NCBI GenBank assembly: GCA_951406725.2
Contig: OX597833.1
Location: forward strand, 22,444,001-22,508,000
Direction of reading: 5' to 3'
DNA from: Octopus vulgaris
Taxonomy: Eukaryota
DNA: 64,000 nucleotides
Shown here: piece after piece, positions 1 to 26,975 of the stretch
Position numbering within the stretch: the first letter of the stretch is position 1
How the letters are laid out: every line of letters begins with the position of its first letter
Translations under genes and position numbers: made by a program
Notes under the pieces: model-generated
Seen by the model: the letters and a program-made list of their open reading frames with translations, nothing else
What the model was told of the DNA's origin: nothing
Database searches by the model: none

Positions 1-1262
1 GCTGTCTTTAAATGTTCCAGTCTCCACCATTTTCTGTTAGATGTTCCATCATAGCTGCCACACAGGCCATTAGATGTTCCTATCACAGTTGATACAAGTG
101 TCCATTGGATGGCCAAGAAGTTCCTAAGTTGTCACCAGTTTCTTCTTTGACTTAAGATAACAAAAATCCTGAAAATGAAGCCAAACAAAGCATTTCTTTC
201 TTCTAAAGTCACCAGTCAACATTTGCAGATGTCCACATGCAAGTCCACCATAACTTCAATAATTAGTTGCATTCTATCACAATTTCCAATAGATTATATT
301 CCATTTGCAGGCATCAGCTTATATAATACATCCTACCAGACAATTATCTTCAAGATTCCATCATGTAGTTACCATCAAATAGTCACAAATATTTCATCCA
401 AAAATTGCCACCAGTCCTTTGTCAATTACAGACATCATCTGCAGAAAAAAATACCAGAAGATAAACTCACCTCTTCTTTCAGTCTAACAATTTGGCAATG
501 ATGAACCAGTCTCTTCAACATATATAGCAGTCTTAGAAGTTTACACATCATCAACAACCATCAGGTTTCATAATAGACATCACTATGTTGAGGTTCTTTT
601 TCAAGTAGCTCTTATTAGATATTTCAGAGCTGGCACCAGCCTACATAAGATTTTCAACCACACTTGCCAGTCTTCATTGTATTGCCAATCTCCATCAGAT
701 GTTCTAAAGTTGCCATTGATCTCCAGATGTCCAACAAGACTTGCTATCAGTCTCCAAATGTTCAATCAGTCAACACTACTCTCCAGATGATCCACCATAG
801 TTACCACTAGTCCCTTGTCCAACTCCTCAAATATGAAAATGTCTGAAAACAAAGCAAAAGAAACCACTTCTTTCCTCCAAATTTACCAGTCTTGTTGACA
901 TTTGTAGATGTCCAAACACGTGTGCACAGTAACTACGATAATAATTAGTTGAATTCTATCAAATATTTCGTCCAAAAGTTGCAACGAGTTGGTTATCAAC
1001 TACAGATGTCATCCACATCTAGAGAAAAAAATAGTCAAAGAAAAGCTCACCTCTTCTTTCAATCTCACTAATTGGTGATGATGAGCCAGTCTCTTCGATA
1101 CATGAAGCTGTTTCATTATGTCTTAAAGCAGACACCACTAAGCTATGCAATGATTCTTTTCTAAGCAGCGCTTATTAGGAATTCAGACCTGTCACCATTT
1201 CCATTAGTAGTTCTGCCACATTTGTCACCAGTGTGTCATATGTTCCATCACAGTCGCATCCA

Positions 1263-3110
1263 GTCACAAATCTTTTATCATAGAGCTGTCTCCAGTTAGT
1301 TGTCAATTATAGATGTCATCATTTTCTGCAAAAGAAAACCTCAGAGAAGAAAAACTCACCTCATCATTCAGCTTCACAAATCAGCATAGTCTCTGCAATA
1401 TACAAAAGTTGCCTCAGACACTCAAATCATCATCAGTCGTCAAGTTTCTTTGCAAGCATCGTTGAGGTACTTGGGAGTTTCTCTTGTGTTACCATCACTC
1501 ATCAACCGTCAAATACTGGACAAATGAAAATAGGCCTGAAATTCAAGCAAAATGTACCTCCACTTCAGTTTCCAGATGTTACATCACGGTTGGTACCCAT
1601 CTCTAGACATTACATCATGGTTGCCACCAGTCTCCATAAGATTCTATTACAATTGCCACCAGTGCCCATCAGATGATTCTATTAGTTGCCACCAGTCACT
1701 ATCACATGTTCATCTGTTGCTACCAGTCACCATCAGCTGCTCCAGCTTTTGCTACCAGTCACCATCAGATGCTCCACCTGTTGCTACTAGTCACCATCAG
1801 ATGCTCCATCTGTTGCTACCAGTCACCATCAGTTGCTCCATCAGTTGCTACCGCTCACCATCAGATGCTCCATCAGTTGCTACCAGTATTATCTCGAACT
1901 CCATGAAAATTGCTAACAGCCTTTTCTACCAATTTCCAGTAAACAAATGTTCTATTAGTAGGCACCATCTTCTACTGTATTATCCTTCAGACTATTTTCT
2001 TCATGAAGATTCAACCAAAGAGTCATCACCAATGTCACAAATCTTTTATCATAGAGCTGTCTCCAGTTAGTTGTCAATTATAGATGTCATCATTTTCTGC
2101 AAAAGAAAACCTCAGAGAAGAAAAACTCACCTCATCATTCAGCTTCACAAATCAGCATAGTCTCTGCAATATACAAAAGTTGCCTCAGACACTCAAATCA
2201 TCATCAGTCGTCAAGTTTCTTTGCAAGCATCGTTGAGGTACTTGGGAGTTTCTCTTGTGTTACCATCACTCATCAACCGTCAAATACTGGACAAATGAAA
2301 ATAGGCCTGAAATTCAAGCAAAATGTACCTCCACTTCAGTTTCCAGATGTTACATCACGGTTGGTACCCATCTCTAGACATTACATCATGGTTGCCACCA
2401 GTCTCCATAAGATTCTATTACAATTGCCACCAGTGCCCATCAGATGATTCTATTAGTTGCCACCAGTCACTATCACATGTTCATCTGTTGCTACCAGTCA
2501 CCATCAGCTGCTCCAGCTTTTGCTACCAGTCACCATCAGATGCTCCACCTGTTGCTACTAGTCACCATCAGATGCTCCATCTGTTGCTACCAGTCACCAT
2601 CAGTTGCTCCATCAGTTGCTACCGCTCACCATCAGATGCTCCATCAGTTGCTACCAGTATTATCTCGAACTCCATGAAAATTGCTAACAGCCTTTTCTAC
2701 CAATTTCCAGTTAAACAAATGTTCTATTAGTAGGCACCATCTTCTACTGTATTATCCTTCAGACTATTTTCTTCATGAAGATTCAACCAAAGAGTCATCA
2801 CCAATGTCACAAATCTTTTATCATAGAGCTGTCTCCAGTTAGTTGTCAATTATAGATGTTCATCCATTTTCTGCAAAAGAAAACCTCAGAGAAGAAAAAC
2901 TCACCTCATCATTCAGCTTCACAATGATCAGCATAGTCTCTGCAATATACAAAGTTGCCTCAGACACTCAAATCATCATCAGTCGTCAAAGTTTCTTTGC
3001 AAGCATCGTTGAGGTACTTGGGAGTTTCTCTTGTGTTACCATCACTCATCAACCGTCAAATACTGGACAAATGAAAATAGGCCTGAAATTCAAGCAAAAT
3101 GTACCTCCAC
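1263..3110. repeat. Near-perfect 771-bp tandem duplication (2 copies plus partial third)
   Basis: GTCACAAATCTTTTATCATAGAGCTGTCTCCAG at 1263, 2034 and 2806. ORFs at 1552 and 2323 are identical over most of their length and offset by 771. Confidence 0.92.
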
Positions 3111-6100
3111 TTCTATCATGAGCTTGGCAATATCACCGTTTGCACATTCCATTACAGCTGTCACTAATGTTCCACGATTTTCTGTTAGACATTCTATCGC
3201 AGCTTCCAAAGATTCCAGTAGATGTTCTGTCAGTTGTTACAAGTGTCCATTAGATGCTCCACCAGATACCAGTCTCCATTAGAAGTTATGAAGTCGTCGC
3301 AAATCTCTTGTTTGATGTATTAGATACCAAAAAGGCTAGATATAAAGCAAAACAAACCACTTCTTTCCTCAAAAGTTGCCCAACATTTGCAGATGTCCAA
3401 ACGCATGTCCACAGTATCTACCATAATAATCATCAGTTGAATTCCATCACAAATATTCCATCCAAAGTTGTCACCAGTTGGCTGTCAATTGCAGATGTCA
3501 TCCACATCTACAGAGAAAAAAAATACACAAAGAAAAACTCACCCCTTCTTTCAGCCTCACGATTCAACAATGATGAGCCACATTCTCTTCAACATATAAA
3601 GCTATCTCAAAGTTCACAAATCATCATGCTTCACATTGTCCTATCAAAGTTGCCAGTCTCCATCAGATGTGCTAAAGTTGCCAACAGCCTCCAGATGTTT
3701 CACGACTTGCCATCAGTCCCCAAATGTTCAATCAGTCGACACTACTCTCCAGATGAAACACCATAGTTGCCACTAGTCCCTTGTCCAACTACTTAAATAT
3801 GAAAATGTCTGAAAACAAAGCAAAAGAAACCACTTCTTTCCTCCAAATTTACCAGTCTTGTTGACATTTGTAGATGATCAAGTCAGGGCTGCATTCCATC
3901 ACAAGTGCAAAGAGATTCCATTAGATATTCTACTGGTCCACACTAGCTTCCTCCAATTTATCATGAATCTTCTATCACATAGTTATCACAAGTTGGTTGT
4001 CAATTGTAGATGTGATCCTTATCTGCAACAGAAAATATCTCAAAAGCAAATCTCACCTCTTCTTTCAATCTAATTGGTGATGAGCAAGTCTCTTCGATAC
4101 ATGAAGCTGTTCCAGAAGTCCAGATCTTTATGTCTCACAGTAGTCACCTCTAAGCTATGCAGTTATTCTTTTCTAAGCAGCTCTAATTAGGTATGCAAAC
4201 CTGTCACCAGAATCCATTAGTTGCTCTGCCAGTTGATACCAGTCTGTCATATGCTCCATCTCTGTTGCATCCAGTGTCCATCAGATGGTTTGTCACCATT
4301 TCCATTACTTGTTCCACTACAACTTCCGATATCTATTAGACGCTCCACCACAAATCCCATTGGTAATCTTATGTTCCATCAATTTGCATATGCTCGATCA
4401 CAGCAGCCATCACTCTTCTTCACAGATACCACCAGCTTCTTGTCTGATTCATTAGGTATTGAAAAGCCTGAAAATGAAGTAAAATGAGCTACCTCTTTCC
4501 TCCTAAGTTATTGGTCCTTTCAAAATTTGATGTCATCTTGATTTGCAAACGAAAATACTTGAAAAAAGAAAGTGATCAGTTTCCAGATGTTACATCACGG
4601 TTGGTACCCATCTCTAGACATTACATCATGGTTGCCACCAGTCTCCATAAGATTCTATTACAATTGCCACCAGTGCCCATCAGATGATTCTATTAGTTGC
4701 CACCAGTCACTATCATATGCTCCATCAGTTGCTACCAGTCACCATCAGCTGCTCCATCTGTTGCTACCAGTCACCATCAGATGCTCCATCTGATGTTCCA
4801 TCACAGTTGCTCCCCATCTCCATCAAATGTTCAAAAGATGCATCCAGTTTGTCTCACCAATTACGTAAACAAAATAGCATGAACATGAAAGTAAGCGAAC
4901 CACTTCTTGCCACCAAACTCATCAGCTCTGGTTGTAATCTGGACTTGCATTCCATCAAAATTGCTAACAGCCTTTTCTACCAATTTCCAGTTAATAAATA
5001 TTCTATTAGCATGTACCATCTTCTATTGTATTATCCATCAGACTATTTTCTTCATGAAGATTCCATCGGAGTCACCACCAATGTCACAAATCTTCCATCA
5101 CACAGCTGTCTCCAGTTAGTTGTCAATTACAGATGTTATCCTTTTCTGCAAAAGAAAACCTCAGAAAAGAAAAACTCACCTCATTCAGCCTCACAAATCA
5201 GCAATGATGAGCCATAGTCTCGACAATACACAAAGTTGCTTCAGACACTCAAATCATCATCCACCATCAAATTTCACTGTAAGCATCGTTGAGGTACTTG
5301 GGAGTTTCTCTTGTGTTACCATCACTCATCAACCGTCAAATACTGGACAAATGAAAATAGGCCTGAAATTCAAGCAAAATGTACCTCCACTTCTATCATG
5401 AGCTTGGCAATATCACCGTTTGCACATTCCATTACAGCTGTCACTAATGTTCCACGATTTTCTGTTAGACATTCTATCGCAGCTTCCAAAGATTCCAGTA
5501 GATGTTCTGTCAGTTGTTACAAGTGTCCATTAGATGCTCCACCAGATACCAGTCTCCATTAGAAGTTATGAAGTCGTCGCAAATCTCTTGTTTGATGTAT
5601 TAGATACCAAAAAGGCTAGATATAAAGCAAAACAAACCACTTCTTTCCTCAAAAGTTGCCAGTCAACATTTGCAGATGTCCAAACGCATGTCCACAGTAG
5701 CTACCATAATAATCATCAGTTGAATTCCATCGCAAATATTCCATCCAAGGTTGTCACCAGTTGGCTGTCAATTGCAGATGTCATCCACATCTACAGAGAA
5801 AAAAAATACACAAAGAAAAACTCACCCCTTCTTTCAGCCTCACGATTCAACAATGATGAGCCACATTCTCTTCAACATATAAAGCTATCTCAAAGTTCAC
5901 AAATCATCATGCTTCACAATGTCCTATCAAAGTTGCCAGTCTCCATCAGATGTGCTAAAGTTGCCATCCATCTCCAAATGTTCAAGACTTGCTATCAGTC
6001 TCCAAATGTTCAATCAGTCAACACCACTCTCCAGATGAAACACCATAGTTGCCATTTCTTCCTTGTCCAACTTATTAAATATGAAAATGTCTGAAAACAA

Positions 6101-9100
6101 AACAAAAGAAACCACTTCTTTCTTCCTAATTTACCAGTCTTGTTGACATTTGTAGATGATCAAGTCAGGGCAGTAATAACTTTGGTAAGAATTAGTTGCA
6201 TTCCATTAGATATTCTACTGGTCCACACTAGCTTCCTCCAATTCATCATGGATCTTCTATCACATAGTTATCACAAGTTGGTTGTCAATTGTAGATGTGA
6301 TCCTTATCTGCAACAGAAAATATCTCAAAAGCAAATCTCACCTCTTCTTTCAATCTAATTGGTGATGAGCAAGTCTCTTCGATACATGAAGCTGTTCCAG
6401 AAGTCCAGATCTTTATGTCTTACAGTAGTCACCTCTAAGCTATGCAGTTATTCTTTTCTAAGCAGCTCTAATTAGGTATGCAAACCTGTCACCAGAATCC
6501 ATTAGTTGCTCTGCCAGTTGATACCAGTCTGTCATATGCTCCATCTCTGTTGTATCCAGTGTCCGTCAGATGGTTTGTCACCATTTCCATTAATTGTTCC
6601 ACTACAACTTCCGATATCTATTAGACGCTCCTCCACTGATGCCATTGGTAATCTGATGTTCCATCACAGTTGCCATCAATTTGCAGATGCTCCATCACTC
6701 TTCTTCACAGATACCACCAGCTTCTTGTCTGATTCATTAGGTATTGAAAAGCCTGAAAATGAAGTAAAATAAGCGACCTCTTTCCTACTAAGTTTTTGGT
6801 CCTTTCAAAATTTGATGTCATCCTCATTTGCAAACGAAAATACTTGAAAAAAGAAAGTGATCAGTTTCCAGATGTTACATCACGGTTGGTACCCATCTCT
6901 AGACATTACATCATGGTTGCCACCAGTCTCCATAAGATTCTATTACAATTGCCACCAGTGCCCATCAGATGATTCTATTAGTTGCCACCAGTCACTATCA
7001 TATGCTCCATCAGTTGCTACCAGTCACCATCAGATGCTCCATCAGTTGCTACCAGTCACCATCAGCTGCTCCATCTGTTGCTACCAGTTACCATCAGATG
7101 CTCCATCTGTTGCTACCAGTCACCATCAGATGTTCCATCACAGTTGCTCCCCATCTCCATCAATTGTTCAAAAGATGCATCCAGTTTGTCTCACCAATTA
7201 CGTAAACAAAATAGCATGAACACGAAAGTAAGCAAACCACTTCTTGCCACCAAACTCATCAGTTCTGGTTGTAATCTGGACTTGCATTCCATCAAAATTG
7301 CTAACAGCCTTCTCTACCAATTTCCAGTTAATAAATATTCTATTAGCATGTACCATCTTCTATTGTATTATCCATCAGACTATTTTCTTCATGAAGATTC
7401 CATCGGAGTCACCACCAATGTCACAAATCTTCCATCATACAGCTGTCTCCAGTTAGTTGTCAATTACAGTTGTTATCCTTTTCTGCAAAAGAAAACCTCA
7501 GAAAAGAAAAACTCACCTCATTCAGCCTCACAAATCAGCAATGATGAGCCATAGTCTCGACAATACACAAAGTTGCTTCAGACACTCAAATCATCATCCA
7601 CCATCAAATTTCACTGTAAGCATCGTTGAGGTACTTGGGAGTTTCTCTTGTGTTACCATCACTCATCAACCGTCAAATACTGGACAAATGAAAATAGGCC
7701 TGAAATTCAAGCAAAATGTACCTCCACTTCTATCATGAGCTTGGCAATATCACCGTTTGCACAATCCATTACAGCTGTCACTAATGTTCCACGATTTTCT
7801 GTTAGACATTCTATTGCAGCTTCCAAAGATTCCAGTAGATGTTCCGTCAGTTGCCACAAGTTTCCATTGGATGCTCCACCAGATACCAGTCTTCACCTAG
7901 AAGTTATGAAGTCGTCGCAAGTCTCTTGTTTGATGTATTAGATACCAAAAAGCCTAGGAATGAAGCAAAACAAACCACTTCTTTCCTCCAAAGTTGCCAG
8001 TCAACATTTGCAGATGTTCAAACGCATGTTCACAGTAGCTACCATAATAATCATCAGTTGAATTCCATTGCAAATATTCCATCCAAAGTTGTCACCAGTT
8101 GGCTGTCAATTGCAGATGTCATCCACATCTACAGAGAAAAAAAATACACAAAGAAAAACTCACCCCTTCTTTCAGCCTCACGATTCAACAATGATGAGCC
8201 ACATTCTCTTCAACATATAAAGCTATCTCAAAGTTCACCAATCATCATGCTTCACAATGTCCTATCAAAGTTGCCAGTCTCCATCAGATGTGCTAAAGTT
8301 GCGATCCATCTCCAAATGTTCAAGACTTGCCATCAGTCTCCAAATGTTCAGTCAACACTACTCTCCAGATGATCCACCATAGTTGCCATTTCTTCCTTGT
8401 CCAACTTATTAAAGATGAAAATGTCTGAAAACAAAACAAAAGAAACCACTTCTTTCTTCCTAATGTACCAGTCTTGTTGACATTTGTAGATGATCAAGTC
8501 AGGGCAGTAATAACTTTGGTAAGAATTAGTTGCATTCCATCACAAGGGCAAGCAGATTTCATTAGATATTCTACTGGTCCACACTAGCTTCCTCCAATTC
8601 ATCATGTATCTTCTATCACATAGTTATCACAAGTTGGTTGTCAATTGTAGATGCGATCCTTATCTGCAACAGAAAATATCTCAAAAGCAAAACTCACCTC
8701 TTTTTTCAATCTAAGTAATTGGTGATGAGGCAGTCTCTTCGATACATGAAGCTGTTCCAGAAGTCCAGATCATTTTGCCTCATGGTAGTCACCTCTAAGC
8801 TATGCAGTGATTCCTTTCTAAGCAGTTCTAGGCATTCAGACCTGTCACCAGAATCCATTAGTTGCTCTGCCAGCCGATACCAGTCTGTCATATGCTCCAT
8901 CTCTGTTGCATCCAGTGTCCATCAGATGGTTTGTCACCATTTCCATTACTTGTTCCACTACAACTTCCGATATCTATTAGACGCTCCACCACAAATCCCA
9001 TTGGTAATCTTATGTTCTATCAATTTGCATATGCTCGATCACAGCAGCCATCACTCTTCTTCACAGATACCACCAGCTTCTTGTCTGATTCATTAGGTAT

Positions 9101-9344
9101 TGAAAAGCCTGAAAATGAAGTAAAATGAGCTACCTCTTTCCTCCTAAGTTATTGGTCCTTTCAAAATTTGATGTCATCTTGATTTGCAAACGAAAATACT
9201 TGAAAAGAGAAAGTTCAGTCTCCAGATGTTACATCACGGTTGGTACCCATCTCTAGACATTACATCATGGTTGCCACCAGTCTCCATAAGGTTCTATTAC
9301 AATTGCCACCAGTGCCCATCAGATGATTCTATTACAGTTGCCAC

Positions 9345-9630
9345 CAGTCACTATCATATGCTCCATCAGTTGCTACCAGTCACCATCGGATGCTCCATCT
9401 GTTGCTACCAGTCACCATGAGATGCTCCATCTGTTGCTACCAGTCACCATCGGACGCTCCATCTGTTGCTACCAGTCACCATGAGATGCTCCATCTGTTG
9501 CTACCAGTCACCATGAGATGCTCCATCTGTTGCTACCAGTCACCATCAGATGCTCCATCAGTTGCTACCAGTCACCATCAGATGCTCCATCTGTTGCTAC
9601 CAGTCACCATCAGATGTTCCATCACAGTTG
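9345..9630. repeat. 32-bp minisatellite (CAGATGCTCCATCTGTTGCTACCAGTCACCAT)n, with copy number varying between macro-units
   Basis: About 8 tandem copies here; fewer in the equivalent position at ~4715-4800, ~7000-7140 and ~1700-1890. Confidence 0.9.
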
Positions 9631-12600
9631 CTCCCCATCTCCATCAAATGTTCAAAAGATGCATCCAGTTTGTCTCACCAATTACGTAAACAAAATAGCA
9701 TGAACATGAAAGTAAGCGAACCACTTCTTGCCACCAAACTCATCAGTTCTGGTTGTAATCTGGACTTGCATTCCATCAAAATTACTAACAGCCTTTTCTA
9801 CCAATTTCCAGTAAATAAATATTCTATTAGCCGGTACCATCTTCTACTGTATTATCCATCAGACTATTTTCTTCATGAAGATTCCATCTGAGTCACCACC
9901 AATGTCACAAATCTTCCATCATACAGCTGTCTCCAGTTAGCTGTCAATTACAGAAGTCATCCTTTTCTGCAAAAAAAAACCTCAGAAAAGAAACTCACCT
10001 CATCATTCAGCCTCACAAATCAGCAATGATGAACCATAGTCTCTGCAATATACAAAGTTGCCTCAGACGCTCGAATCATCGGCCATCAAGTTTCATTGTA
10101 AGCATCATTGAGGCACATGGAGTTTTTCTTGTGTTACCATCACTTGTCAACTGTCAAATACTGGACAAAGGCGAATAGGCCTGAAATTCAAACAAAATAT
10201 ACCTCCACTTCTACCATTAGCTTGGCAACATCACTATTTGTAAATTCCATTACAGCTGTCACTAAATGTTCCATAGCTTCTTCCATTTTCCGTTAGACGT
10301 TCTATCGCAGCTACCAAAGATTCCAGAAGAATGTTCCGTCACAGTGACCACAAGTGTACATTGGATGCTCCACCAGATACCAGTCTCCAGATGCTACATC
10401 ATGGTTGCCACCAGTCTCCAGACATTACATCATGGTTGCCATCAGACGTTACAACATGGTTGCTGACAGTTTCCATCAGACTATTCTATTGCAGTTGCCA
10501 CCAGTCTATCAAATGTTCCATCACAGTTGCCACCAGTCACCATCAGATGTTCCATTACGTTCAATCAAAATTCTCCTCATGAACATTCTACCTTAGAGTC
10601 ACCACTAATATCACAAATCTTCTATCAAACTGCTGTCTCCAATTAATTGTCAATTACAGATGTTATCCTTTTCTGCAAAAGAAAACCTCAGAAAAGAAAG
10701 ACTCACCTCATTCAGCCTCAAGTCAACAATGATGAGCCATAGTCTCGACAGTACACAAAGTTGCTTCAGACACTCAAATCATCATCCACCATCAAATTTC
10801 ACCGTAAGCATCTTTGAGGTACTTGGTGTTTCTCTTGTGTTACCATCACTCATCAACCATCAAATACTGGACAAATGAGAATAGGCCTGAAATTCAAGCA
10901 AAATATACCTCCACTTCTATTATGAGTTTGGCAACATCACTCTTTGCACATTCCATTACAGCAGTTGCTAATGTTCCACAGCTTCTACAATTTTCTGTTA
11001 GACGTTCTATCATAGCTACCAAAGATTCTAGATGTTGTCAGTTGCTACAGGTCTCCATTAGATGCTCCACAAGATACCAGTCTATTAGAAGTTATGAAGT
11101 CCCAAAAAGCCTGGAAATAAAGCAAAACAAACCACTTCTTTCCTCCAAAGTTGCCAGTCAACATTTGCAGATGTCCAAATGCATGTTCACAGTAGCTACA
11201 ATAATAATCATCAGTTGAATTCCATCGCAAATATTCCATCCAAAAGTTGTCACCAGTTGGTTGTCAATTACAGATGTCATCCACATCTACATAAAAAAAA
11301 AATACTCAAAGAAAAACTCACCCCTTCTTTCAGCCTCACGATTCAACAATGATGAGCCACATTCTCTTAACATATAAAGCTATCTCAAAGTTCACAAATC
11401 ATCATACTTCACATTGTCCTATCAAAGTTGCCAGTCTCCATCAGATGTGCTAAAGTTGCCAACAGCCTCCAGATGTTTCACGACTTGCCATCAGTCCCCA
11501 AATGTTCAATCAGTCGACACTACTCTCCAGATGAAACACCATAGTTGCCATTTCTTCCTTGTCCAACTTATTAAATATGAAAATGTCTGAAAACAAAACA
11601 AAAGAAACCACTTCTTTCTTCCTAATTTACCAGTCTTGTTGATATTTGTAGATGATCAAGTCAGGGCAGTAATAACTTTGGTAAGAATTAGTTGCATTCC
11701 ATCACAAGTGCAAGCAGATTTCATTAGATATTCTACTGGTCCACACTAGCTTCCTCCAATTCATCATGAATCTTCTATCACATAGTTATCACAAGTTGGT
11801 TGTCAATTGTAGATGTGATCCTTATCTGCAACAGAAAATATCTCAAAAGCAAAACTCACCACTTCTTTCAATGTCACTAATTGGTGATGAGCAAGTCTCT
11901 TCGATACATGAAGCTGTTCCAGAAGTCCAGATCATCATCTCTCACGGTAGACACCAGTAAGCTATGCAGTGATTCCTTTCTAAGCAGTTCTAATCATTCA
12001 GACCTGTCACCAGCTGCCATTAGTTGTTCTGCAAGTTGATACCAGTCTGTCATATGTTCCATCTCAGTTGCATTCAGTGTCTGTCAGACAGTTCATCACC
12101 ATTTCCATCTATTTCTCCACTACAATTGCTGATAACTACTAGACACTCCTGAATAGATGACATTGGTAATCTGTACCATCACTGTTGCCATCAATTTCAA
12201 GATGCTCCATCACAGTAGCCATTACTCTTCTTCACAGATACCACCAGCTTCTTGTCAGATTCTTTAGATATTGGAAAGCCTGAAAAATGAAGTAAAATGA
12301 CGGACCTCTTTCCATGTTATTGGTCCTGTCAACACTTGATGTCATCCCATTTGCAAACGAAAATACTCGAAAAGAGAAAGTGATCAGTCTCCAAGTGTTA
12401 CCCATCTCCAGACATTACATCACAGTTGCCACCAGATTATCGAATGTTCCATCACAGATGCCACCAGTCATCACATGTTCCATCACAATTGCCAGTCACC
12501 ATCAGATGCTCCCCATCTCCATCAAATGTTCCAGCGATGCCTCCAGTTTGTCTCACCAATTATATAAACATATTTCCAGTAAATAAATGTTCTATTAGCA

Positions 12601-14261
12601 GGCACCATCTTGTACAGCATTATCCACCAGAAAATTCTCATGAAGATTCAACCAAAAAGTCACCACCAACATCACAAATCTTCTATCATACAGCTGTCTC
12701 CAGTTAGTTGACAATTACAGATAACTTTTTCTGCAAAAGAGGACCTCAGAAAAGAAAAACTCACCTCTTCAGTATCTGCAATATACAAAGTTGCCTCAGA
12801 CACTCAAAACATCAGCCATCAAGTTTCATCATAAGCATCATTGAGGTACTTGGAGTTTCTCTAGTGTTACCATCATGCGTGAACCACTAAATACTGCACA
12901 AATGAGAATAAGCCTGAAATTCAAACAATTCATCTCCACCTCTATCATGAGCTTGGCAACGCCACCATTTGCACATTCCATTACAGCTATCACTAGATGT
13001 TCTAGTTTCTACCATTTTCCATTAGACCTTTCATAGTTGTTCCTATCACAGTTGCCACAACTGTCCACTACAGATGCTAGTTTCCATTAGAAGCTCAATA
13101 GTTGTCACAAGTTTGTCTCAAGATACCAAAAATCCTGAAAATGAAGCAAAACAAACCACCACTTCCCTCCAAAGTCACCAGTCAACATTTGCAGATATTC
13201 AAACACATGCACACAATAACTTCGATAATTATTAGTTGCATTTTATCACAACTGCCACCAACCTTCATTACATGGTCCATCTCCTTCTTGTCAATTTTCA
13301 GCAGACTATGTTCTATTTGCCAGGCGTCAGCTTACATAATACATCTCACCAGACAATTATCATCAAGATTCTAGCATGTAGTTACCATCAATTTATCACA
13401 AACATTCCATTAGCAATTTCTCGCAAGCTGGTTGTTAATTCCATGTCATCATCATGTGCAGAAAAAAATTTACTACAGAAGAAAAGCTCACCTCTCCTTT
13501 CAGTCTCACAATTCGGCAATAATGAACTAGTCTCTTCAACAAAGTAGTCTCAGAATTTCACAAATCACTAACCATCAGGTTTCACAATAGACATCACTAT
13601 GTTGAGGTTCTTTTGTACGCAACTTTCACTAGGTATTTCAGAGCAGTTACCCCAGCGTCCATCAGATGTTCTACCATGCTTGCCACCAGTTTTCATTATG
13701 TTCCATCACAGTTGCCAGTCTCCATCAGATGTGCCAAAGTTGCTATCAGTCTCCAGTTTTTCAATTACAGTTGTCAACAGTCTCCAGCCGTCACTATATG
13801 TTGTCACCAGTTTGTCTGACATGTCCGATACCAAAAGGACTGAAAATGAAGCAAAACCAACCACTTCTTTCCTCCAAAGTCAACATTTGCAGTAGTCCAA
13901 AGAAAGGTTCACCATAACAGTAATAATTAGTTGCATTACAACACAATTGCCACCAATCTCTTTTACATGTTCCCTATTTGCCAATTTCCAGTAGACTATG
14001 TTCTATTAGTAGTCATCAGCTTCCATATTATATCCACTAGACAATTATCTTCAAGGAGGTTCTACCATTTTGTCATTAGTTGATAGATAGTATATCCTCA
14101 TCTGCAAAAGAAAATTTCTGAAAAGAGAAACTCACTTTTTTTTTTTCCAGTTCCAAAAATCAACATGTGTGAATCATTTCAGTTGTAAGTGGAGATTCTT
14201 TTGTTAGCTTCCCTAATGCATTCCAGAATTGTAATCAGCTTTCATAAACATTGTATCAGTT

Positions 14262-16235
14262 GCAACCAGTGTGAAGATGTTCCATGACAGTCGTCACCAG
14301 TCAGATGTTCCATCGCAGTCACCGCCAGTCTGAAGATGTTCCATGACAGTCGCCACCAGTCTGAAGATGCTCCATCACAGTCGCCACCAGTCTGAAGATG
14401 CTCCATCACAGTCGCCACCAGTCTGAAGATGCTCCATCACAGTCGCCACAAGTCTGAAGATGCTCCATCGCAGTCGCCACCAGTTTGAAGTTGTTCCATC
14501 GTAGTCGCCACCTGTCTGAAGTTTTTCCATGACAGTCGCCACCAGTCCGAAGATGTTCCCTCGCAGTCGCCAACAGTGTGAAGATGTTCCATGACAGTCG
14601 CCACCAGTGTGAAGATGTTCCCTCGCAGTCGTCACCAGTGTGAAGATGTTCCCTCGCAGTCATCACCAGCGTGAAGATGTTCCCTCGCAGTAGTCACCAG
14701 CGTGAAGATGTTCCCTCGCAGTCGTCACCAGTGTGAAGATGTTCCCTCGCAGTCGTCACCAGTGTGAAGATGTTCCATCGCAGTCGCCACCAGTATCCAT
14801 GACAGTCACCACCAGTGTGAAGATGTTCCCTCGCAGTAGTCACCAGCGTGAAGATGCTCCCTCGCAGTAGTCACCAGCGTGAAGATGTTCCCTCGCAGTC
14901 ATCACCAGCGTGAAGATGTTCCCTCGCAGTAGTCACCAGCGTGAAGATGTTCCCTCGCAGTCGTCACCAGTGTGAAGATGTTCCCTCGCAGTCGTCACCA
15001 GTGTGAAGATGTTCCATCGCAGTCGCCACCAGTATCCATGACAGTCACCACCAGTGTGAAGATGTTCCCTCGCAGTAGTCACCAGCGTGAAGATGCTCCC
15101 TCGCAGTAGTCACCAGCGTGAAGATGTTCCCTCGCAGTAGTCACCAGCATGAAGATGTTCCCTCGCAGTCGTCACCAGTCTCCATGACAGTCGTCACCAG
15201 TGTGAAGATGTTCCCTCGCAGTCGTCACCAGCGTGAAGGTGTTCCCTCGCAGTCGTCACCAGTGTGAAGATGTACCCTCGCAGTCATCACCAGCGTGAAG
15301 ATGTTCCCTCGCAGTCGTCACCAGCGTGAAGATGTTCCCTCGCAGTCGTCACCAGCGTGAAGATGTTCCCTCGCAGTCGTCACCAGTTTGAAGATGTTCC
15401 TTGACAGTCGTCACCAGTCTGAAGATGTTCCATCGCAGTCGTCACCAGCGTGAAGATGTTCCTTCGCAGTCGTCACCAGCGTGAAGATGTTCCCTCGCAG
15501 TCGTCACCAGTGTGAAGATGTACCCTTGCAGTCGTAAACAGTGTGAAGATGTTCCTCGCAGTCGTCACCAGCGTGAAGATGTACCCTCGCAGTCGTCATC
15601 AGTGTGAAGACGTTCCATCGCAGTCGCCACCAGTCTACATGACAGTCGTCACCAGCGTGAAGATGTTCCCTCGCAGTCGTCACCAGCGTGAAGATGTACC
15701 CTCGCAGTCGTCACCAGCGTGAAGATGTACCCTCGCAGTCGTCACCAGCGTGAAGATGTACCCTCGCAGTCGTCACCAGCGTGAAGATGTACCCTCGCAG
15801 TCGTCACCAGCGTGAAGATGTACCCTCGCAGTCGTCATCAGTGTGAAGATGTTCCATCGCAGTCGCCACCAGTCTACATGACAGTCGTCACCAGTGTGAA
15901 GATGTTCGATGAGTCGTCACCAGCATGAAGATGTTCCCTCGCAGTCGTCACCAGCGTGAAGATGTACCCTCGCAGTCGTCACCAGCGTGAAGATGTACCC
16001 TCACAGTCGTCACCAGTGTGAAGATGTTCCATCGCAGTCGCCACCAGTGTGAAGATGTTCCATCGCAGTCGCCACCAGTGTGAAGATGTTCCATGACAGT
16101 CGTCACCAGCGTGAAGATGTTCCCTTGCAGTCGTCACCAGTGTGAAGATGTTCCCTCGCACCCGTCACCAGTGTGAAGATGTTCCATCACAGTAGCCACC
16201 AATTTGAAGTTCCACCACAATTGCCACCAGTCTGA
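14262..16235. repeat. 31-bp minisatellite (AGTCGTCACCAGYGTGAAGATGTWCCCTCGC)n, ~60 copies
   Basis: 31-nt periodicity read directly (e.g. 15661-15840), with occasional ~20-nt truncated units. Related to the motif underlying the upstream array. Unit length is not a multiple of 3. Confidence 0.95.
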
Positions 16236-18097
16236 CTCATTAGGCAGTACCAGCTTCCATTGTATATCCAGTTATCCTCAAGGGGTTTCCACCACATTAT
16301 CATACTGTGAATTCATTTCCCCACTCACAGCCAACAATCAATGTCACTACATAATGCAGTAGAGAAACAGCTGACTAGATGCACAAGTTTCTACACCATC
16401 ATGGGACATCTGGAAGAAACAAGAAAAACAGAAAGAAAAAACTCACCTTTTTTCCAAACCAGGAATGTTCAAGAGCCTCCAGTCACTTTAGATACTTCAG
16501 GGCAGATCCATTACATTGGAAAGAAATTAGACATATCCCATAAGAACTGTTAGTCTTCAGTGGATGCTGTCATTTTTCACCAGCCTCTTAACATTCCACC
16601 TGTCACTAGTTTTCATTATTTGTCCCCCAGTTCTCATAGATCCCACTCTCATATTCACAATCAGTAGATGCAGTTTCATCTCCTCCCCTGATGTATACAT
16701 TGACAATCATCGTTTCTGAACCATACAGTAAATACCTGGTGCCAAACAAATTCCCACACCACAAAATATCTAAAAGAAAACCTGAGGAAAAAAGTAGCTA
16801 TTCTTTCTATGTGATAAATCAGCAAATACAAGCCGAGTCAAATGCTTGAAGCAACTTCATGTACAATTCATTTTGTGATGTGTAAATACTGTTAACATTA
16901 CCAACTGATTTTCAAGAGAGTCAAACAAGAACCTGTAAAGGAAACTTGAGCCATAACTGGAGATACCTTCAGGGCAGTCCATCATATAATTGGTATTAAA
17001 CGTCAGTCAGACCTTTATCAGCTACCATTAGATGCTCTATTAGTTTTCACCAGTCTTATTCTTGTATCTGTGAGTGATCAGCAAGAAACCTGAAAATGAA
17101 CCAAAATAAACCTCCACTTTCCACCTCTTGTCACCATTAATCAGTCACAACTTATCTCAGGGCAGGTGCATCATAATGCAGATATTGATACACCCAGTCC
17201 TTTATTTGGCAAGTTATGCTATAATTTTTGTAATAGGTATTCATTAACAGAGAAGTTCCTATCCACCAATGTAGTTTCCTTAGATAATCTAAAGTTTAAA
17301 AAAAATGTAGTTCATGATTCAATCACATGGCTTACAAAAAACTCGTTTTAAATTGTGAAAATGAATTTGCCACTCCATATACCTGAAAATGAAAGATTAC
17401 ACCTCCACCTGTTGCTTGAAGGTATTAGTTGATCACACCTAATAGTAATCGTTAGATTAGGAAGCTACAAGTGAAGCATAGTAGTGATACCAACCATTAA
17501 TCACAGATTTTAAATGTTAATTTCACGTGTATTAATCATAGCCATCTATCATCAGGCTTTTAAAGATTCTTTTGTACATCTTGAGCTGTCAATTTCTCTT
17601 AGAATATGCTCCAGTTTTCTCTAATGTGGTGACATTGTTTTACAAAGATATAACAAAACCCAATTATGCAAATTTCTGTATAGATGTTACTGCGAAACAG
17701 GAAAAGGTAAACTTTCTTTTTGGTCTATCGTGTCAGCCAACTGTAGTGAATCATGAAAATTCAACTGAATTTCAGTTAACACCATGTTAGATCTGCTGTG
17801 TCATGTATAGATGTGTTTATGTACCTGAAAATAAAAGAACCATATTCCACATGTTCATATACCGAGTTGATCTTATACTTATATCAAACCCTCTAATTCA
17901 CAAGTCTCCACTTAATACAAAATTCCAACGATGCCACCCATTGGACAATGTATTTGAAATTGCAAAAGCCATGCTTCTGATTATAAAGATATTGCACTGC
18001 ACAAAACCATAAAAAAAAATTTTTTTAATTCTGTAGGAGTTCGTTTGTCTACTATAGATTGTTTACATTTTTTTCCAATGTAGTTATGATCATAAAT

Positions 18098-18504
18098 GAT
18101 GCATTTTCTGTTATTGTCAATAACTGTTAGAGATGACTTGATCTTGTAAATATATATATATAAAAAATTTTCTTTTTACCTTGCATTCATATCCTTTGAT
18201 ACATTTGCTCCTAACCTGCTGCAAACTATCAATGATGCATTTTCTGTTATTGTCAGTAACTGTTAGAGATGACTTGATCTTGTAAATATATATATAAAAA
18301 ATTTTCTTTTTACCTTGCATTCATATCCTTTGATACATTTGCTCCTAACCTGCTGCAAACTATCAATGATGCATTTTCTGTTATTGTCAATAACTGTTAG
18401 AGATGACTTGATCTTGTAAATATATATATAAAAAATTTTCTTTTTACCTTGTATTCATATCCTTTGATACATTTGCTCCTAACCTGCTGCAAACTATCAA
18501 TGAT
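18098..18504. repeat. ~135-bp tandem repeat x3
   Basis: TGATGCATTTTCTGTTATTGTCA...GCTGCAAACTATCAA starts at ~18098, ~18233 and ~18367. Confidence 0.92.
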
Positions 18505-20448
18505 GTATGTATATTCATTATTAGTGTTGTCATCACCTTTTAAAAGAAAATACCAAATACCTGCAAGTGAAGGAAAAGTCTGGTGCTGCAACTTGTCAGT
18601 GCAACATTGCAATTTCTTTCCTATTTTCTCCTTTACAACAATGAATGCCAAGTGCTCTCACATACCTGAAGACATTTTGTTCTTCCCTTCCCAAATCACA
18701 ATGAGTGGGAGACTGCTTTCTCTGCATTCTAACAGAGATGCTTGCACAAATATTACCTCATCCTATCCAAATATTTTAAGGGCTGATGAAAATTGCCGTC
18801 AATTACAGAATAGTAATTTCATCAATAATAACAGTATCTGCAAATGGAAAAAAATATGCTGGGTGGAAACCACCTAGCAACAATATAGAACTTTTCACCC
18901 CCTCCCTACGAACAAATTTGTCAAAGAATTTAAAATTATCTTCCATATTACTTGTAATTATAATTTAAATAGGCAATGGAACCTCTAAATTCAAGTTCTA
19001 TTGATTAAACAAACTGAATCTCCACTAGCATCATTTGTCTTAACACTACATTTACATTTGGAAACAAAATTTAACACTTTTGTTTTTAGTTATGATTAAA
19101 ACCAAAATTAATTTTGCAGCCATGCAATGCTGTGATAAATTTATCTTATTACATTTTCATCCTATTTTCTTTTGTAAATTTAGTCATTGCAATACAATGA
19201 AAAATCTGAAACAAAATAAAAAAAGCAATCTCTCCAACCCGTGAATTAACCTATCATACCTGAAGAATTTGTAGGAGTGTTTCAAGATAATATATAGTAC
19301 ATCATACTGTAGAACTTTCTTCTGTCATCCATTTCAAAATTCTATCAGTATTGCAGCAATAACAACTCATTTCAAATGGGACTTCATTCTGGAGAACATT
19401 GCAGGATGAGAATATTTGCCTTCCAAGTTTTATCAAATTGACATTTACTCTGTTGGGTTCACTATTTAAAAATGTGATGTTTCATAAGAACCTATTTGTT
19501 TCCTATTCATGTAACCATGAAGCTCAAGATTTCACCCTAATTTTTCAGCACATTTGTATATTCCAAAGCATTAGTGTTGTATGTCATCCAGAGCTGTTTT
19601 GTTGTATGCAGTTAAAATAGCTTGTCACTTTTTCAGTTTAGTATCTTATGTGGGATTGTCTTTTTGTGAATGTAAATTCATGTTTGCCTTGTCTATTTCC
19701 AGTTCCAGATTTGGTTATGATGCTCAATAAATTACAACTTATTTCATTTAGAAAATGTGAAACTTGTTAAAATTTACAGAAACCCTTTTCTTCGAATATT
19801 CAAAAGCCATGTTTCATGAAGCACTCATCCAACACAACATTCCTGCCACTGCAGTTGTCCCAAGTGTCTTGGACAAGTATGCAAATTGCCTTGTAAGCTT
19901 CAAATATTGGACAGCAGACCTAAAAAGGAAAAGATCTTTTGTTGTTCAACTATTTTGTTAAACTTCAAAACAATACTAAAATATATCCAAAAAATACCAT
20001 AGTTATCTTAGCCACTTCATTGACAACCTAACCAGATAGCTCTATACACAAACTTTGGATTGGATATAATAGTATGCCTGCATTCAACATATTTTAGTAT
20101 ACACATTTTAATACTTTAATGCAATAGATATGTTGCATGATATACCATCTAAAAATACTTCAGCCCATCATGCATTGCCTATGTGTCAGTTTTAATTCTA
20201 TAAAACGCTTCAATACTACACAAGATAAACAGAATATTCATGTAGCAGCTATTGATGTATTACTGACTGGCAAACAAGATCATAAATGAACTGATATGTC
20301 TACTTTAAGCCTATCAACCATTTACATAGGTGTGAAATTCAAATTTCATTTCGTTAAGTCGAACGGAAAACTGCACTTGTGAAAAAAATCTATTCATCTA
20401 ACTGGTTCAAGACTAAATCAAGTTATCTCCCCTTAAATCTGCAACAAA

Positions 20449-20845
20449 GTTTTTGAGAAAAGCTTATATTTAGAAGTTATTTCACGTTAAAGTTGTAGTA
20501 TTTCGGTAATTTCAACCAAGCAATGACGTGTATTCAGCTGAATAAATTATTGCTGTTGTCAACAAGAACTCCTGGCGGTGTATACTTCGTTTGTCACTTA
20601 TTTTTGACAACCCTAACCCCTTACAGCTAAAACCAGTACAAACGCACGAACGATGTCATCATTTATTGGTTGAAATTACCGAAATACAACTTTAACGTGA
20701 AATAACTTCCTAAATATAAGCTTTTCTCAAAAACGCTAAGAGCAAAAGATATTTTACGACACATTCTGCCAGTGTCCGAAGTTTGAAAGTGTTCAGTTAC
20801 AAAAAATTATTTTTTAAATCTGTCAGTCAAAAAAGGTAAAGATCT
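20449..20845. mobile_element. MITE-like non-autonomous DNA transposon with internal inverted repeat (same family as 36629-37046)
   Basis: Inverted arms 20449-20519 and 20666-20734. The right end ACACATTCTGCCAGTGTCCGAAGTTTG...AAAGATC resembles 36961-37045. Confidence 0.7.
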
Positions 20846-21363
20846 CAAAACGCTACTTGTTTGCAAGTACCACAGATCAATCATAGGGCCTATCATGTGA
20901 TTTCAATAAGAGTGGAAAGTTGGGGTAAAATAGTGAAAAGAACATTCCACTCCTTTTAAGCAACTTGTATTGTCTACTTCTGCCCACTCCCTTGTAAATA
21001 TGTGCTTGTATATTATGATATAACTAGTTTTATATTGAAAATTACAAGATCCAATCCAAAGTTAAAACTGTGCATTAATTTTCTGGCAGCATCTAAAAAC
21101 TTAATATTATCTAATCAGACATTTATCTTAGAAAACGCTGCACCACCTTGATGGTTTAGGTGGTCTATACTTTGTCCAAGAGATGGTACCATTATATATA
21201 ACAGCTTGTAGTAACATAGAATAGTTTCCCCATTACGAGAAAACCAAGAAACAAGATTAACGTTACATATATTAGAAACAGACAAGCGTTTGGAATGAAG
21301 CACATTTTAAGGCCTAAACTTGCATTTTCGACAATCTTTTACATGTTTACGTGTAAGGATAGC

Positions 21364-21915
21364 GTGTGGAAAACGAATATGAAAAAAAATGAGCTGACGA
21401 TTTCTGGGGTGGGGAGGAGACTTTCGGAAAATTCACAAGATCCTATTTTTCCGTCATAAATTAAATTGGGGTAAAATGGATATAGATTTTTACGGAATCC
21501 CACGTTTTTGGCTATGGAGGATTCGATTCTGAAAATTTTTTTTTCAAAATTTCTTTACGTCATCGCAGCTTTGTGAGATTTGGCCGTTATTTCTAGCATG
21601 TGGATAGCCTGCTTAAAGGCCTGAGGGTATATGTATTATTGTTGAAAAATTGAAGTTTTACAAATTTTTTTCAGAATCGTAATCTTCGCATTTCTCTACC
21701 TATTTCGGTCACCCACAAAATCCGGAAAAAGCTACTTTTGAAAAATTTCCAGGATCGAATCCTCCATAACCAAGAGCGTCGGATTCCGTAAAAAAATATC
21801 CATTTTCTCAAAAGTTATAACGGAAAAATCAGATCTTGTGAATGTTCCGAAAGTCCCCTTCCCACCCCGCCAGGATCGTCAGCGAACATTTTCATCATAT
21901 TCGTTTTCCATACAC
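21364..21915. mobile_element. MITE-like element with ~190-bp imperfect terminal inverted repeats
   Basis: GTGTGGAAAACGAATATGA...TTTTACGGAATCC (21364-21550) is the reverse complement of GGATTCCGTAAAA...TCATATTCGTTTTCCATACAC (21735-21915). Confidence 0.8.
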
Positions 21916-23792: not shown

Positions 23793-24218
23793 GTCGTAGC
23801 ACACGTTTCCGTCGATTTCCGTAAAAAACTTTTATTTTTTTACATAGGGCTTGCGGGAACTTTTGAAGTAATGAGAGCGAAAGAGACTAAGAGAAAGCGA
23901 TTGTATGACGAGGGAAGTTCTTTTGAAGTTACCGTGCATGGCAAGCATTGATGTACATGTGTGTGTGTGTTTGATGGAGTGTGGGAGACAGACAGTATGT
24001 TGTGTAAGTGAAGTGCTTCTGTTAGTGTGCGAAGAGACAGAGAGAGTAATGTGTGAAAGAGAGAGATAACTGAAATTTTTTACTCGGTGTATGTGTATAT
24101 GTATGTGTGCGTGTGTATGTATGTATGTATGTATGTGTGTGTGTGTAAGTATGTGTGTGTGTATGTATGGCCGATTCAGTGTAATTTTTTACTCGGTGTA
24201 TGTGTATATCTGCATGTA

Positions 24219-24250
<32 letters not shown>

Positions 24251-24674
24251 GCCGATTCAGTGTAATTTTTTACTCGGTGTATGTGTATATGTATGTGTGC
24301 GTGTGTATGTATGTATGTGTGTGTGTGTAAGTATGTGTGTGTGTGTGTATGTATGGCCGATTCAGTGTAATTTTTTACTCGGTGTATGTGTATATCTGCA
24401 TGTATGTGTGTGTGTGTATGTATGTATGGCCGATTCAGTGTAATTTTTTACTCGGTGTATGTGTATATGTATGTGTGCGTGTGTATGTATGTATGTGTGT
24501 GTGTGTAAGTATGTGTGTGTATGTATGGCCGATTCAGTGTAATTTTTTACTCGGTGTATGTGTATATCTGCATGTATGTGTGTATGTATCTATGTATGTG
24601 TGTGTGTGTATGTATGTATGGCCGATTCAGTGTTTACATTTTTTACGGAAATCGACGGAAACGTGTGCTACGAC
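23793..24674. mobile_element. MITE-like element with perfect 36-bp TIRs and an internal minisatellite/(TG,TATG)n expansion
   Basis: GTCGTAGCACACGTTTCCGTCGATTTCCGTAAAAAA at 23793-23828 and its reverse complement at 24639-24674. The internal unit GGCCGATTCAGTGTAATTTTTTACTCGGTG recurs about 5-6 times. Confidence 0.85.
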
Positions 24675-26699
24675 AAACGAAACATCGCCCAATACAGATG
24701 TCAATATCAATCATTCACTCCAACACGAATCACCATCAGCATCTCATACATTCAAGTGACAACATTCACTTCGTGTCCACACACACCGTTTAGCAAAAGT
24801 AAAACACTAGGGTTTACCTGAACCGTTGTATAGATATCCTTTGTTGTATCTGTATGTACACAATATGATGGGGAGACATGAGCCTGGACAAGACAAAGGG
24901 TTTGGGTCCAAAGTAGCCAACTGGCGGCAACCCGTGGACCGGAAGAAATGACAGACCTTGCTGTAGTCTCAATAACAGGATTCTCAAGGTGAACACTGTA
25001 GCCATAAAATACAAACAAATTGCGTGGACGAGAAAATGCTATAACACAAGCAAGCATGTTTATAACAACTAATTGTTAGAGAAAATTCTTATCGTTTACC
25101 TCTTGAATTCAAACAGTATTCCGAAAACTATTCCCAAGAATACAGGTCTGGCACATGAAATAGACCTAAAATCTCCGTAAATGCGGCCAAGCAAACACCT
25201 AAAGACGATCATCTTTGAGAGAAGAGCAAATCTACATCTCAAATCAAATTTAATCTTCACAACGAAATGTCATTGCATTAGCATACAGGAAAATGCTTCG
25301 CATACTACGACAAATGAAGTTTATTAGTGAATTTCGTCACAATATTTAACAAATTCATGTAAAACAGGATTCTAAATTCACGTCAATTTAGCTTAAGAAT
25401 GTTTCCGTTATCTTTACGTATGACGTATTTTGTTCTCTAAAATTTTTAATTAGAAAAAAAAAAAATTCCGTCATAATTCTCATATCGTCTGATCTACATC
25501 AGAACTATCTTAATTAAAAACCATCGTTTTACAATTATATTAACTTGAGATTTTTTTTTAAATGTCAATTTGAAAAAAAAATTAGTCTACAAAATAAGGT
25601 CACGAACTAAATACAATAGACGTAGAAAGAAATCAAAATGGCGTCTCAAGGACACTCGACCTTTACTCAACACAACTTACAATTTTACCCACACACGTCA
25701 CTCATCACTCACAGTAAGCAGGTTATTTCTTCTAGTAGCAGGTTCCGTCACAAAATGGTTTATTTCAATTTTATACGGCCAGCTTTCTCCTACTGAGGTA
25801 TATGGCTATAGAAAAAAGAAAACCACGAACAAAGAGAATTGCGCCGCAACAAATTTCGCTATTATTTCAATAAAATTAAATTATTGTAAGCATTTACACT
25901 GTAACCAATGTAATATATGTAGTTTCTTTTAAATTATTGTATTTTTGATTGTTTTTTCGCTTATAAAGAATTTTTATTACATTTGGAGCTGAAAATGTAT
26001 AGAAGAATGTAAAGAGAAACCTTACAAAACGCGATTGTTTGATGTAGATGCCCGTGTACTTTTTCCAAGCTGCCAGGGTGGATGCGGAATATATTAAAAG
26101 TTTAACCATGATTACCCATAAAATGTAGGAATATACGCAGGAATTTAAGCAGAAATGGTATGAGTACTTGGGAACCAGGATAGATCAGTGAACCTTTGAT
26201 TCTCACTATGTTGACAAGCCAGATTGTCGAAGTATTTCACTTCTAATAATGTTAACTGCAGAAGAAAAAGTCAAGTAAAATATTAAAAAGAATAATAGAC
26301 ATATGTATAACACAAAATACAAATTTTATTTTCTGATATTTTACAAAACGTTGCACAAATAATTAAATTTCGAAAAATAAGGGAAAAAGTTTTACGACAA
26401 ATTGACAAGAACTTGCTGAGGCGACCAGGTACTGCAACTGCTGGAAAATAGTACACAAGTAGTATTTATACTAATAGGTCTAATCACATTTTTTGGTATT
26501 AATACGCACCCAAAGTAAAATATAGTTCCTTTCACATTTTGTTTTTATTTTCAAATACAATTAAACCTAATGGATATTTTCCTCGTCCATCAAATAAAAA
26601 TTATATATTAAATATATTAGAAAAAATATATCAAAATTTAAAACTTATAATACGATATACATAAATAGTATCATCGCGGAGGAATTCGTTAATGTCTGT

Positions 26700-26975
26700 T
26701 CTGTGACTCACACCCACGTCTTGATCACGTGTTGTTTACTTCATAGTATTTGCCACGTCACTTCATGGCCTAAAAAGAAGCTAAAGCCCCCCCCCCCCCC
26801 CTCCGCCATTTTACATGTATCAAATATTAAAATAAATATTTACAAAAATCTAAAATGTAGAATAATTACTAAAGTAAACTCCGATTGTTATTGTTTTAAT
26901 AAAATATATATTTTCTGCATTGAAAATTATTTAACAATCATGTTTAAAAATAAAAATAAATGGCGTCCCGGAAAA
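26700..26975. promoter_or_regulatory. Putative bidirectional Pol II promoter
   Basis: YY1-type CCGCCATTTT at 26803-26812 faces away from AAATGGCG at 26958-26965, which is followed by ETS-like CCGGAA. TGACTCA, CACGTG and CACGTCA motifs lie within 26700-26760. Another CAAAATGGCG is at 25634. CpG is locally retained. Confidence 0.45.

Follow-up and report, generated by a model that had tools for sequence, protein, structure and literature searches.

Conserved donor-only and acceptor-only splice signals in a non-coding repeat array of Octopus vulgaris, a candidate locus of a nuclear-retained RNA

The window analyzed in this study, 64,000 nucleotides of Octopus vulgaris DNA (C20:22,444,001-22,508,000, C20 being the 73.6-Mb contig OX597833.1 of the 2.8-Gb genome), contains part of a degenerate repeat array. 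Strand-skewed composition and sequence reading placed the whole array between about -35,300 and +17,500 in window coordinates, a span of about 53 kb. An initial annotation of the window had described in this array 20-37-nt GT..AG cassettes on the minus strand and had listed genuine micro-introns among the possible explanations. The feature is real and selectively maintained, but it was misread as micro-introns. Judged from the aligned repeat units, only the donor of one cassette class (class A, G|GTGAG) and the acceptor of the other (class B, TTTTCAG|G) appear conserved above background, and the 20-37-nt 'introns' are best described as pairings of a true donor with a residual AG, or of a residual GT with a true acceptor. 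In our favored reading, to which we give about an even chance, this likely autosomal array encodes a long, mostly unspliced minus-strand long non-coding RNA (lncRNA) for which nuclear retention by U1 snRNP (a small nuclear ribonucleoprotein) and U2AF is predicted.

All nine cassettes cited in the initial annotation have the coordinates, lengths and GT..AG ends given there. Between positions 1 and 17500 we counted 21 class A donors of the form GT(A/G)AG and 26 class B acceptors. All of them lie on the minus strand, and for the most part the two classes alternate, in agreement with the earlier description of about 20 long cassettes alternating with a shorter class. The limits proposed for the array, 170..17410, do enclose cassettes but not its full extent, as about 35 kb more lie beyond the left edge of the window. 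Cassettes combining a donor and an acceptor numbered 13, 10 and 10 per 4 kb on the minus strand of positions 1-12000 versus 2, 2 and 2 on the plus strand. In the cassette array, the minus strand contained 57 TTYCAG versus 11.9 expected, with repeats being non-independent draws in this comparison. A profile search returned 49 A-type and 59 B-type matches, all minus, with some cross-matching between the classes. When aligned with each other, the A and B modules scored 53 at a shuffle maximum of 50; from their sequences they look like descendants of one ancestral donor-plus-acceptor motif, with the donor surviving in A and the acceptor in B. We discarded a purine-pyrimidine hairpin as an explanation of the motifs, as the purine block is missing from one subfamily that still has the tract.

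To keep the tested motif out of the selection, repeat units for the conservation analysis were collected using only profiles of their upstream flanks. The resulting 36 A and 31 B units were thinned to less than 90% identity (25 A and 27 B units, mean pairwise identity about 73%) and placed on maximum-likelihood (ML) trees; P values were derived from column permutations with same-letter columns as background. The A donor G|GTGAG had accumulated 1.17 changes per column versus 3.85 in the background (P 0.0001, 25 units), and its G at position +5 was present in 21 of 21 ungapped rows. With gaps counted the P value was 0.02, weaker because several distal units have deleted the donor. For the B acceptor AG we found 0.5 changes per column versus 4.5 (P under 0.0001, 27 units); the AG was retained in 26 of the 27 non-redundant units and the acceptor G in all 27. 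The A acceptor (P 0.19-0.34) and the B 'donor' (P 0.11-0.46), evaluated on ML trees of the non-redundant units, were not slower than background and serve as internal controls for the column test. The GAG|GTA subclass of B, an example of which the initial annotation had cited, was analyzed separately (12 rows) and conserved neither the GT (P 0.29) nor positions +3 to +6 (P 0.83). The earlier observation that the GTGAG and YAG ends persist holds for the donor of A and the acceptor of B, which change more slowly than the unit, and fails for the other two ends.

Subunit alignment had been proposed as a decay-rate test of passive amplification, and it speaks against such amplification for two of the four ends, the remaining two being at background. 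A passive macrosatellite, in which one ancestral motif was amplified, the apparent conservation stems from anchored alignments, from gene conversion or from a function at the DNA level, and read-through accounts for any RNA, is in our view improbable. It would be in line with the recent 2.3-kb duplications of 92-94% identity, the decay of donors in distal copies and the indirect nature of the evidence for transcription. However, two motifs stand far above background while their immediate neighbors in the same alignments do not, the invariant letters (donor +5 G, acceptor G) are those read by U1 and U2AF, and poly(A) signals are depleted on the sense strand.

The array is non-coding, as had been concluded from stops in an intervening segment: none of 40 inter-cassette segments of at least 150 nt is open under genetic code table 1 or table 6. 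The initial proposal of splice signals maintained in a non-coding repeat is thus borne out, the conserved A donors and B acceptors being accompanied by segments without open frames. Removal of 41 cassettes in silico yielded no open reading frame (ORF) above 95 codons, and none of 25 modelled B-to-A exons was open. Alternative genetic codes were rejected, since the segments are not open under table 6 and TGA read-through equals the null (4 of 25 open versus 4.2).

Further evidence came from Logan contigs of four sequencing runs (X1, X5, X6 and X7, from four studies) aligned to positions 9650-14250. The RNA type of these runs is the tool's guess, and 32 of the 151 contig pieces were listed. The contig sets total 42-100 million letters, with a depth of 6-28 on the single-copy part of the array in this 2.8-Gb genome, which fits RNA over whole-genome DNA and suggests that all four sets are RNA. 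No splice joint was found on this region in any of the four runs, contigs representing the dominant form. Among the listed contigs, 10 of 15 cassettes were bridged unspliced with at least 31 nt on both sides (10 in X1, 8 in X5, 5 in X6 and 4 in X7), and individual contigs pass unspliced through the donors at 14135, 13491 and 12764 and the acceptors at 13840, 13135 and 12280. Back-splicing as the source of odd joints was rejected, as these joints and four of the loose ends or inserts map to paralogous copies; visual inspection assigned the 12512-10526 joint to the 32-nt satellite. At minus-strand position 14136 (-1 of the A donor 14135), contigs of X1 and X5 (two studies) carry G where the genome has A, resulting in the consensus AG|GT; an allele, a homopolymer error and A-to-I editing are candidate explanations. 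Among 24 runs listed for positions 10000-14200, none of them recorded as RNA, 17 guessed to be RNA and 3 of unknown kind contain part of the region, and 4 runs of the same species contain next to none; these were used neither for expression nor for silence. Runs of organisms B, C and D contain 0.41-0.56 of the words of this region, from which we do not claim cross-species conservation.

Genuine 20-37-nt micro-introns removed by the spliceosome are very unlikely. GT..AG ends at this spacing are present, the A cassettes combine a strong donor with a U-rich tract and a YAG, and such introns are known in myxobolids and a dicyemid (PMC13644364). However, neither class conserves both ends, the bridged cassettes are retained in the contigs, and in-silico removal restores no reading frame. 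The available part of PMC13644364 further reports that such introns were limited to those parasites in a set of 51 metazoan genomes, and describes the ultra-short introns of Dicyema japonicum and myxobolids as genome-wide, located within coding exons and equipped with reduced splice motifs. The octopus cassettes share the length and the GT..AG ends but are found at one locus, are non-coding, are not conserved at both ends and remain in the contigs. What looked like ultra-short introns in a free-living animal would then no longer count as a case of them. The suspicion that dicyemid or ciliate DNA was co-assembled into the host has almost no probability; the short-intron look alone speaks for it. 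The array lies within a 73.6-Mb contig and is non-coding under both code tables, with TGA read-through at the null level. Insertion of a host SINE (L003:9790-9660; 74-88% identity to 11 listed flank copies) and of a LINE fragment (L002:5970-7490, antisense to the inferred transcript) within the array rules out foreign DNA. The array is one locus of host DNA: all 33 genome matches to one array unit map here, and the 3 genome occurrences of a class A 22-mer all fall in this array.

The distance from an A donor to the next B acceptor is an ordinary intron size, with a median of 302 nt over 27 pairs and at most 360 nt in 19 of the 27. Another option in the initial annotation, donors too close to their own acceptor and pairing farther off, gives the best fit to the conservation pattern, but no skipped or back-spliced joint was found in the contigs. 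Compared with the genome's own U1, the A donors form 6-7 Watson-Crick and 1-2 G-U pairs of 9 (15 of 16 sites, one with a position mis-set by 3 nt being left out), whereas the B 'donors' form 4-6 Watson-Crick and 0-1 G-U pairs (10 sites). The U1 snRNA genes form a large cluster at C18 48.97-49.21 Mb, and 42 U1 matches were scored genome-wide. The expected branch-point place, about 20 nt upstream of B acceptors, is taken by a purine block with AGs; a TRAY match was found there in 3 of 36 cases and the looser yUnAy in some.

These data bear on the main rival explanation, an ordinary lncRNA of repeated exons and introns whose A donors are spliced to B acceptors (introns of about 200-900 nt) slowly, combinatorially or tissue-wise, so that selection keeps a spliced minority. 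Each unit indeed conserves exactly one donor and one acceptor, which follow each other in the correct order and with normal spacing. Contigs drop rare forms and minority junctions may vanish in such assemblers, so many alternative junctions, each of them rare, could be lost. On the other hand, no joint was seen in four of four runs, single contigs run through several donors and acceptors, and the branch-point place of B is occupied by the purine block and rarely offers a TRAY. Furthermore, none of the modelled exons is open, and A-to-B splicing would therefore give no protein. We regard this explanation as possible but, on balance, unlikely.

Putative transcript ends could be assigned on both sides of the array. 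Upstream of it, two modules with TATA boxes and cAMP response elements (CRE) form a promoter-like zone at 25.6-26.8 kb that sits in a CpG-rich stretch (observed/expected 0.67-1.39 in 20500-29500 versus 0.36 in the array). Together, AATAAA and ATTAAA occur 9 times on the cassette array's minus strand versus 28.7 expected; neither was found on that strand between 17206 and -366, and five lie within 700 nt past the array end. The TATA/CpG zone and the downstream AATAAA cluster would fit one minus-strand transcript of about 62 kb.

In the proposed mechanism of nuclear retention, transcription would proceed from the TATA/CpG zone near 26.4 kb through to the AATAAA cluster beyond the array, with A donors as the binding sites of U1 and B acceptors as those of U2AF. 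Excision at the array sites would be poor because the A donor's own acceptor is too close and a purine block occupies the branch-point place of B. Selection would then act on factor binding and not on excision, and the bound factors may suppress early polyadenylation and export, resulting in nuclear retention and a scaffold role. In mammals, intact 5' splice-site (U1) motifs and U2AF65 binding keep RNA nuclear and block early 3' cleavage, according to the available parts of two studies (10.1101/310433; PMC6199362).

Several points weigh against this mechanism and the nuclear-retained lncRNA. The retention mechanism is borrowed from mammals by analogy. The RNA nature of the runs is a guess of the tool, and contigs carry neither strand nor transcript ends. 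Since contigs lose rare forms, they leave room for minor splicing of either kind, and the comparison covers 4.6 kb of the 53 kb. Alignment columns are non-independent, gene conversion can distort trees, conserved motifs anchor alignments, and the alignment behind a common origin of A and B is weak (53 versus a shuffle maximum of 50). Several of the 17 units left of the window lack the A donor, and this loss together with the nearly motif-free distal 14 kb indicates that the constraint is not uniform.

Routing of the RNA to small-RNA processing had also been considered. The array could be a host or precursor of small RNAs, as an array of C/D snoRNAs (small nucleolar RNAs), a microRNA (miRNA) cluster, or a piRNA/siRNA precursor marked by stalled spliceosomes; we consider this improbable, even more so than passive amplification. 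Mammals possess tandem exon-intron snoRNA hosts, and before each A donor there is an element resembling a C box and D box (RTGATGA...CTGA twice), with RTGATGA exact in 10 of 25 units. However, both TGATG and CTGA occur as words in the basic unit of the satellite as well. An Rfam scan of positions 1-20000 with E up to 1 gave no match, no terminal stem was found by inspection, and none of 32 candidate guides, some of them mis-extracted, had at least 10 nt antisense to the genome's 28S, 18S, 5.8S or U1 RNA (mean antisense length 6.0 versus 6.1 in shuffles). The guide and Rfam results speak against a box C/D snoRNA host array, although orphan snoRNAs would fail the same criteria. Hairpins of a miRNA cluster were rejected after a first impression by eye of one upstream of A: folding of 228 windows gave no excess of pre-miRNA hairpins (mean z +0.28, 1.8% below -2, best -2.9).

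By analogy, the predicted octopus RNA would in its working come closest to Gomafu and the U1-retained lncRNAs, being a member of neither. In Gomafu/MIAT, a vertebrate nuclear lncRNA, the tandem splice signal UACUAAC binds the splicing factor SF1, according to the available part of PMC4255692. Both RNAs carry a tandem splice signal in a non-coding RNA, factor binding in octopus being a prediction. In contrast to Gomafu, the octopus signals are donors and acceptors rather than branch points and the whole RNA is a repeat; no homology is claimed. Mammalian lncRNAs retained through 5' splice-site motifs and U2AF binding are the other counterpart, with retention of the octopus RNA being predicted. 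Their motifs are scattered, whereas those of the octopus, a mollusc, are regularly arrayed and have been kept in paralogs that are about 73% identical. FIRRE is nuclear-retained as well, as stated in the part of PMC6199362 available. Zmast and Zfest are Z-linked sex-specific octopus lncRNAs (10.1101/2024.12.09.627507, seen in part). The Zfest host gene Amnionless lies on C16, matching the Z of that report, and the array on C20, which makes the array likely autosomal. Identity with Zmast or Zfest was rejected on this basis, judged by chromosome and not by the Zmast sequence; they too are large octopus lncRNAs, and the array is about three times longer than Zmast. PMC9712504 mentions lncRNAs with nuclear enrichment, and according to PMC9699675 octopus splicing overall shows no major departure; this locus is not described in the available parts of either source or of PMC9115989. 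A full-text literature search retrieved no description of the locus; supplements and gene annotations were outside its scope, and an lncRNA identifier may exist.

Long, non-coding, composed of repeated units at one locus and carrying a constrained putative factor-binding motif, the array has these properties in common with the loci of repeat-built nuclear lncRNAs. Mammalian loci of this kind are FIRRE, DXZ4 and the SNORD115/116 hosts, which consist of tandem diverging non-coding units. The octopus array resembles them in these respects and as a single locus, but it is likely autosomal, contains no snoRNA that passed our tests and gave no spliced products in the contigs. MALAT1 and Gomafu are thought to nucleate a nuclear body or to tune spliceosome supply in vertebrates. 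As a tentative extension, the array may encode an octopus-evolved splicing-factor scaffold, an RNA of 55-60 kb with dozens of U1/U2AF landing pads, in which one ancestral motif was split into donor-only and acceptor-only modules selected to bind and not to splice, and which nucleates a nuclear body or tunes spliceosome supply. If true, this would be a mollusc case of a large architectural or decoy RNA, whose working motifs can be recognized directly by their conservation among paralogs, each site being present in dozens of natural variants. It would make testable outside mammals whether splice sites are ever selected for binding without excision.

The features of the window are compiled in Table 1.

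Table 1. Coordinates of array features and the promoter-like zone (window positions)
Feature	Position	Strand	Details
Window part of array	1..17500	-	GC skew about -0.28; homologs at this locus only
Class A module, 21 copies	439..16446	-	Purine block GAAAGAAGAG, donor GT(A/G)AG (conserved), U-rich tract, YAG (weakly retained)
Class A cassettes 1-7	16410-16446, 14102-14135, 13473-13491, 12731-12764, 11826-11859, 11287-11321, 10673-10706	-	
Class A cassettes 8-14	9967-9998, 8664-8697, 8129-8163, 7483-7516, 6308-6341, 5791-5825, 5146-5179	-	
Class A cassettes 15-21	4023-4056, 3508-3542, 2871-2904, 2097-2130, 1326-1359, 1019-1050, 439-470	-	
Class B module, 26 copies	169..17402	-	Purine block, acceptor TTYATTTTCAG|G (conserved); upstream GT at about 22 nt not conserved
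Class B AG ends 1-13	17383, 17090, 13840, 13135, 12914, 12280, 11587, 11111, 10887, 10181, 9109, 8425, 7954	-	
Class B AG ends 14-26	7700, 6753, 6091, 5616, 5363, 4468, 3809, 3336, 3083, 2307, 1536, 843, 169	-	
Extra strong acceptors, array 5' edge	16770..17825	-	17825, 16933, 16782/16770
Single-copy stretch crossed by contigs of four runs without splice joint	12227..14250	-	A donors 14135, 13491, 12764; B acceptors 13840, 13135, 12914, 12280
31-nt tandem satellite, 64 copies, within array	14265..16209	.	
32-nt tandem satellite blocks	1621-1887, 2392-2658, 4631-4790, 6916-7140, 9271-9623	.	
Recent higher-order duplication	2671..9495	.	Period about 2.3 kb, 92-94% identity
Promoter-like zone (putative, consensus matches only)	25641..26812	-	TATAAA 26470, 25775; TGACGT 26760, 25700; CACGTG 26731; TGAGTCA 26710

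Leftward, the array reaches to about 35,300 nt before window position 1 (C20 about 22,408,700), and its cassette-bearing part stops about 21,500 nt before that position. The distal 14 kb consist of a related purine-rich satellite nearly devoid of donors and acceptors. A young homogeneous satellite of several kb without splice motifs lies in the distal array (L003:1-5260). Within the window, each of the 32-nt satellite blocks is located between an A donor and the following B acceptor, and no duplicate of at least 500 nt was found for 12.5-14.25 kb.

Location of the array within an intron of a coding gene was rejected after scanning 120 of 168 flanking ORFs, which besides mobile elements revealed only an exon of SSR1 (TRAP-alpha). 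This near-C-terminal exon lies about 39 kb past the array end on the opposite strand; the last short SSR1 exon was not located. The SSR1 exons (L009:6834-7097 and downstream, plus strand) converge on the array from about 39-48 kb. Right past the 3' end of the array are ORFs of the LTR-retrotransposon type with gag (weak), reverse transcriptase, RNase H and integrase (L004:280-900 and L005:6898-9430). About 3 kb past the array end we found an 18S rRNA fragment (L004:1410-1545) that is 97% identical to the rDNA units, and similar copies are dispersed over many contigs. A tandem rDNA array with a period of about 18.4 kb is located about 1.5 Mb from the locus (C20 about 23.94-24.08 Mb; L016, L017); its Rfam 18S and 28S matches cover 2.6 and 4.9 kb, exceeding the models. 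Just 5' of the array, positions 18095-18505 hold three copies of a 134-nt tandem repeat that are 98% identical. Farther upstream, at 43510-46055, there is a LINE whose reverse-transcriptase ORF is split over several frames, with a second partial copy on the opposite strand at 47300-48004.

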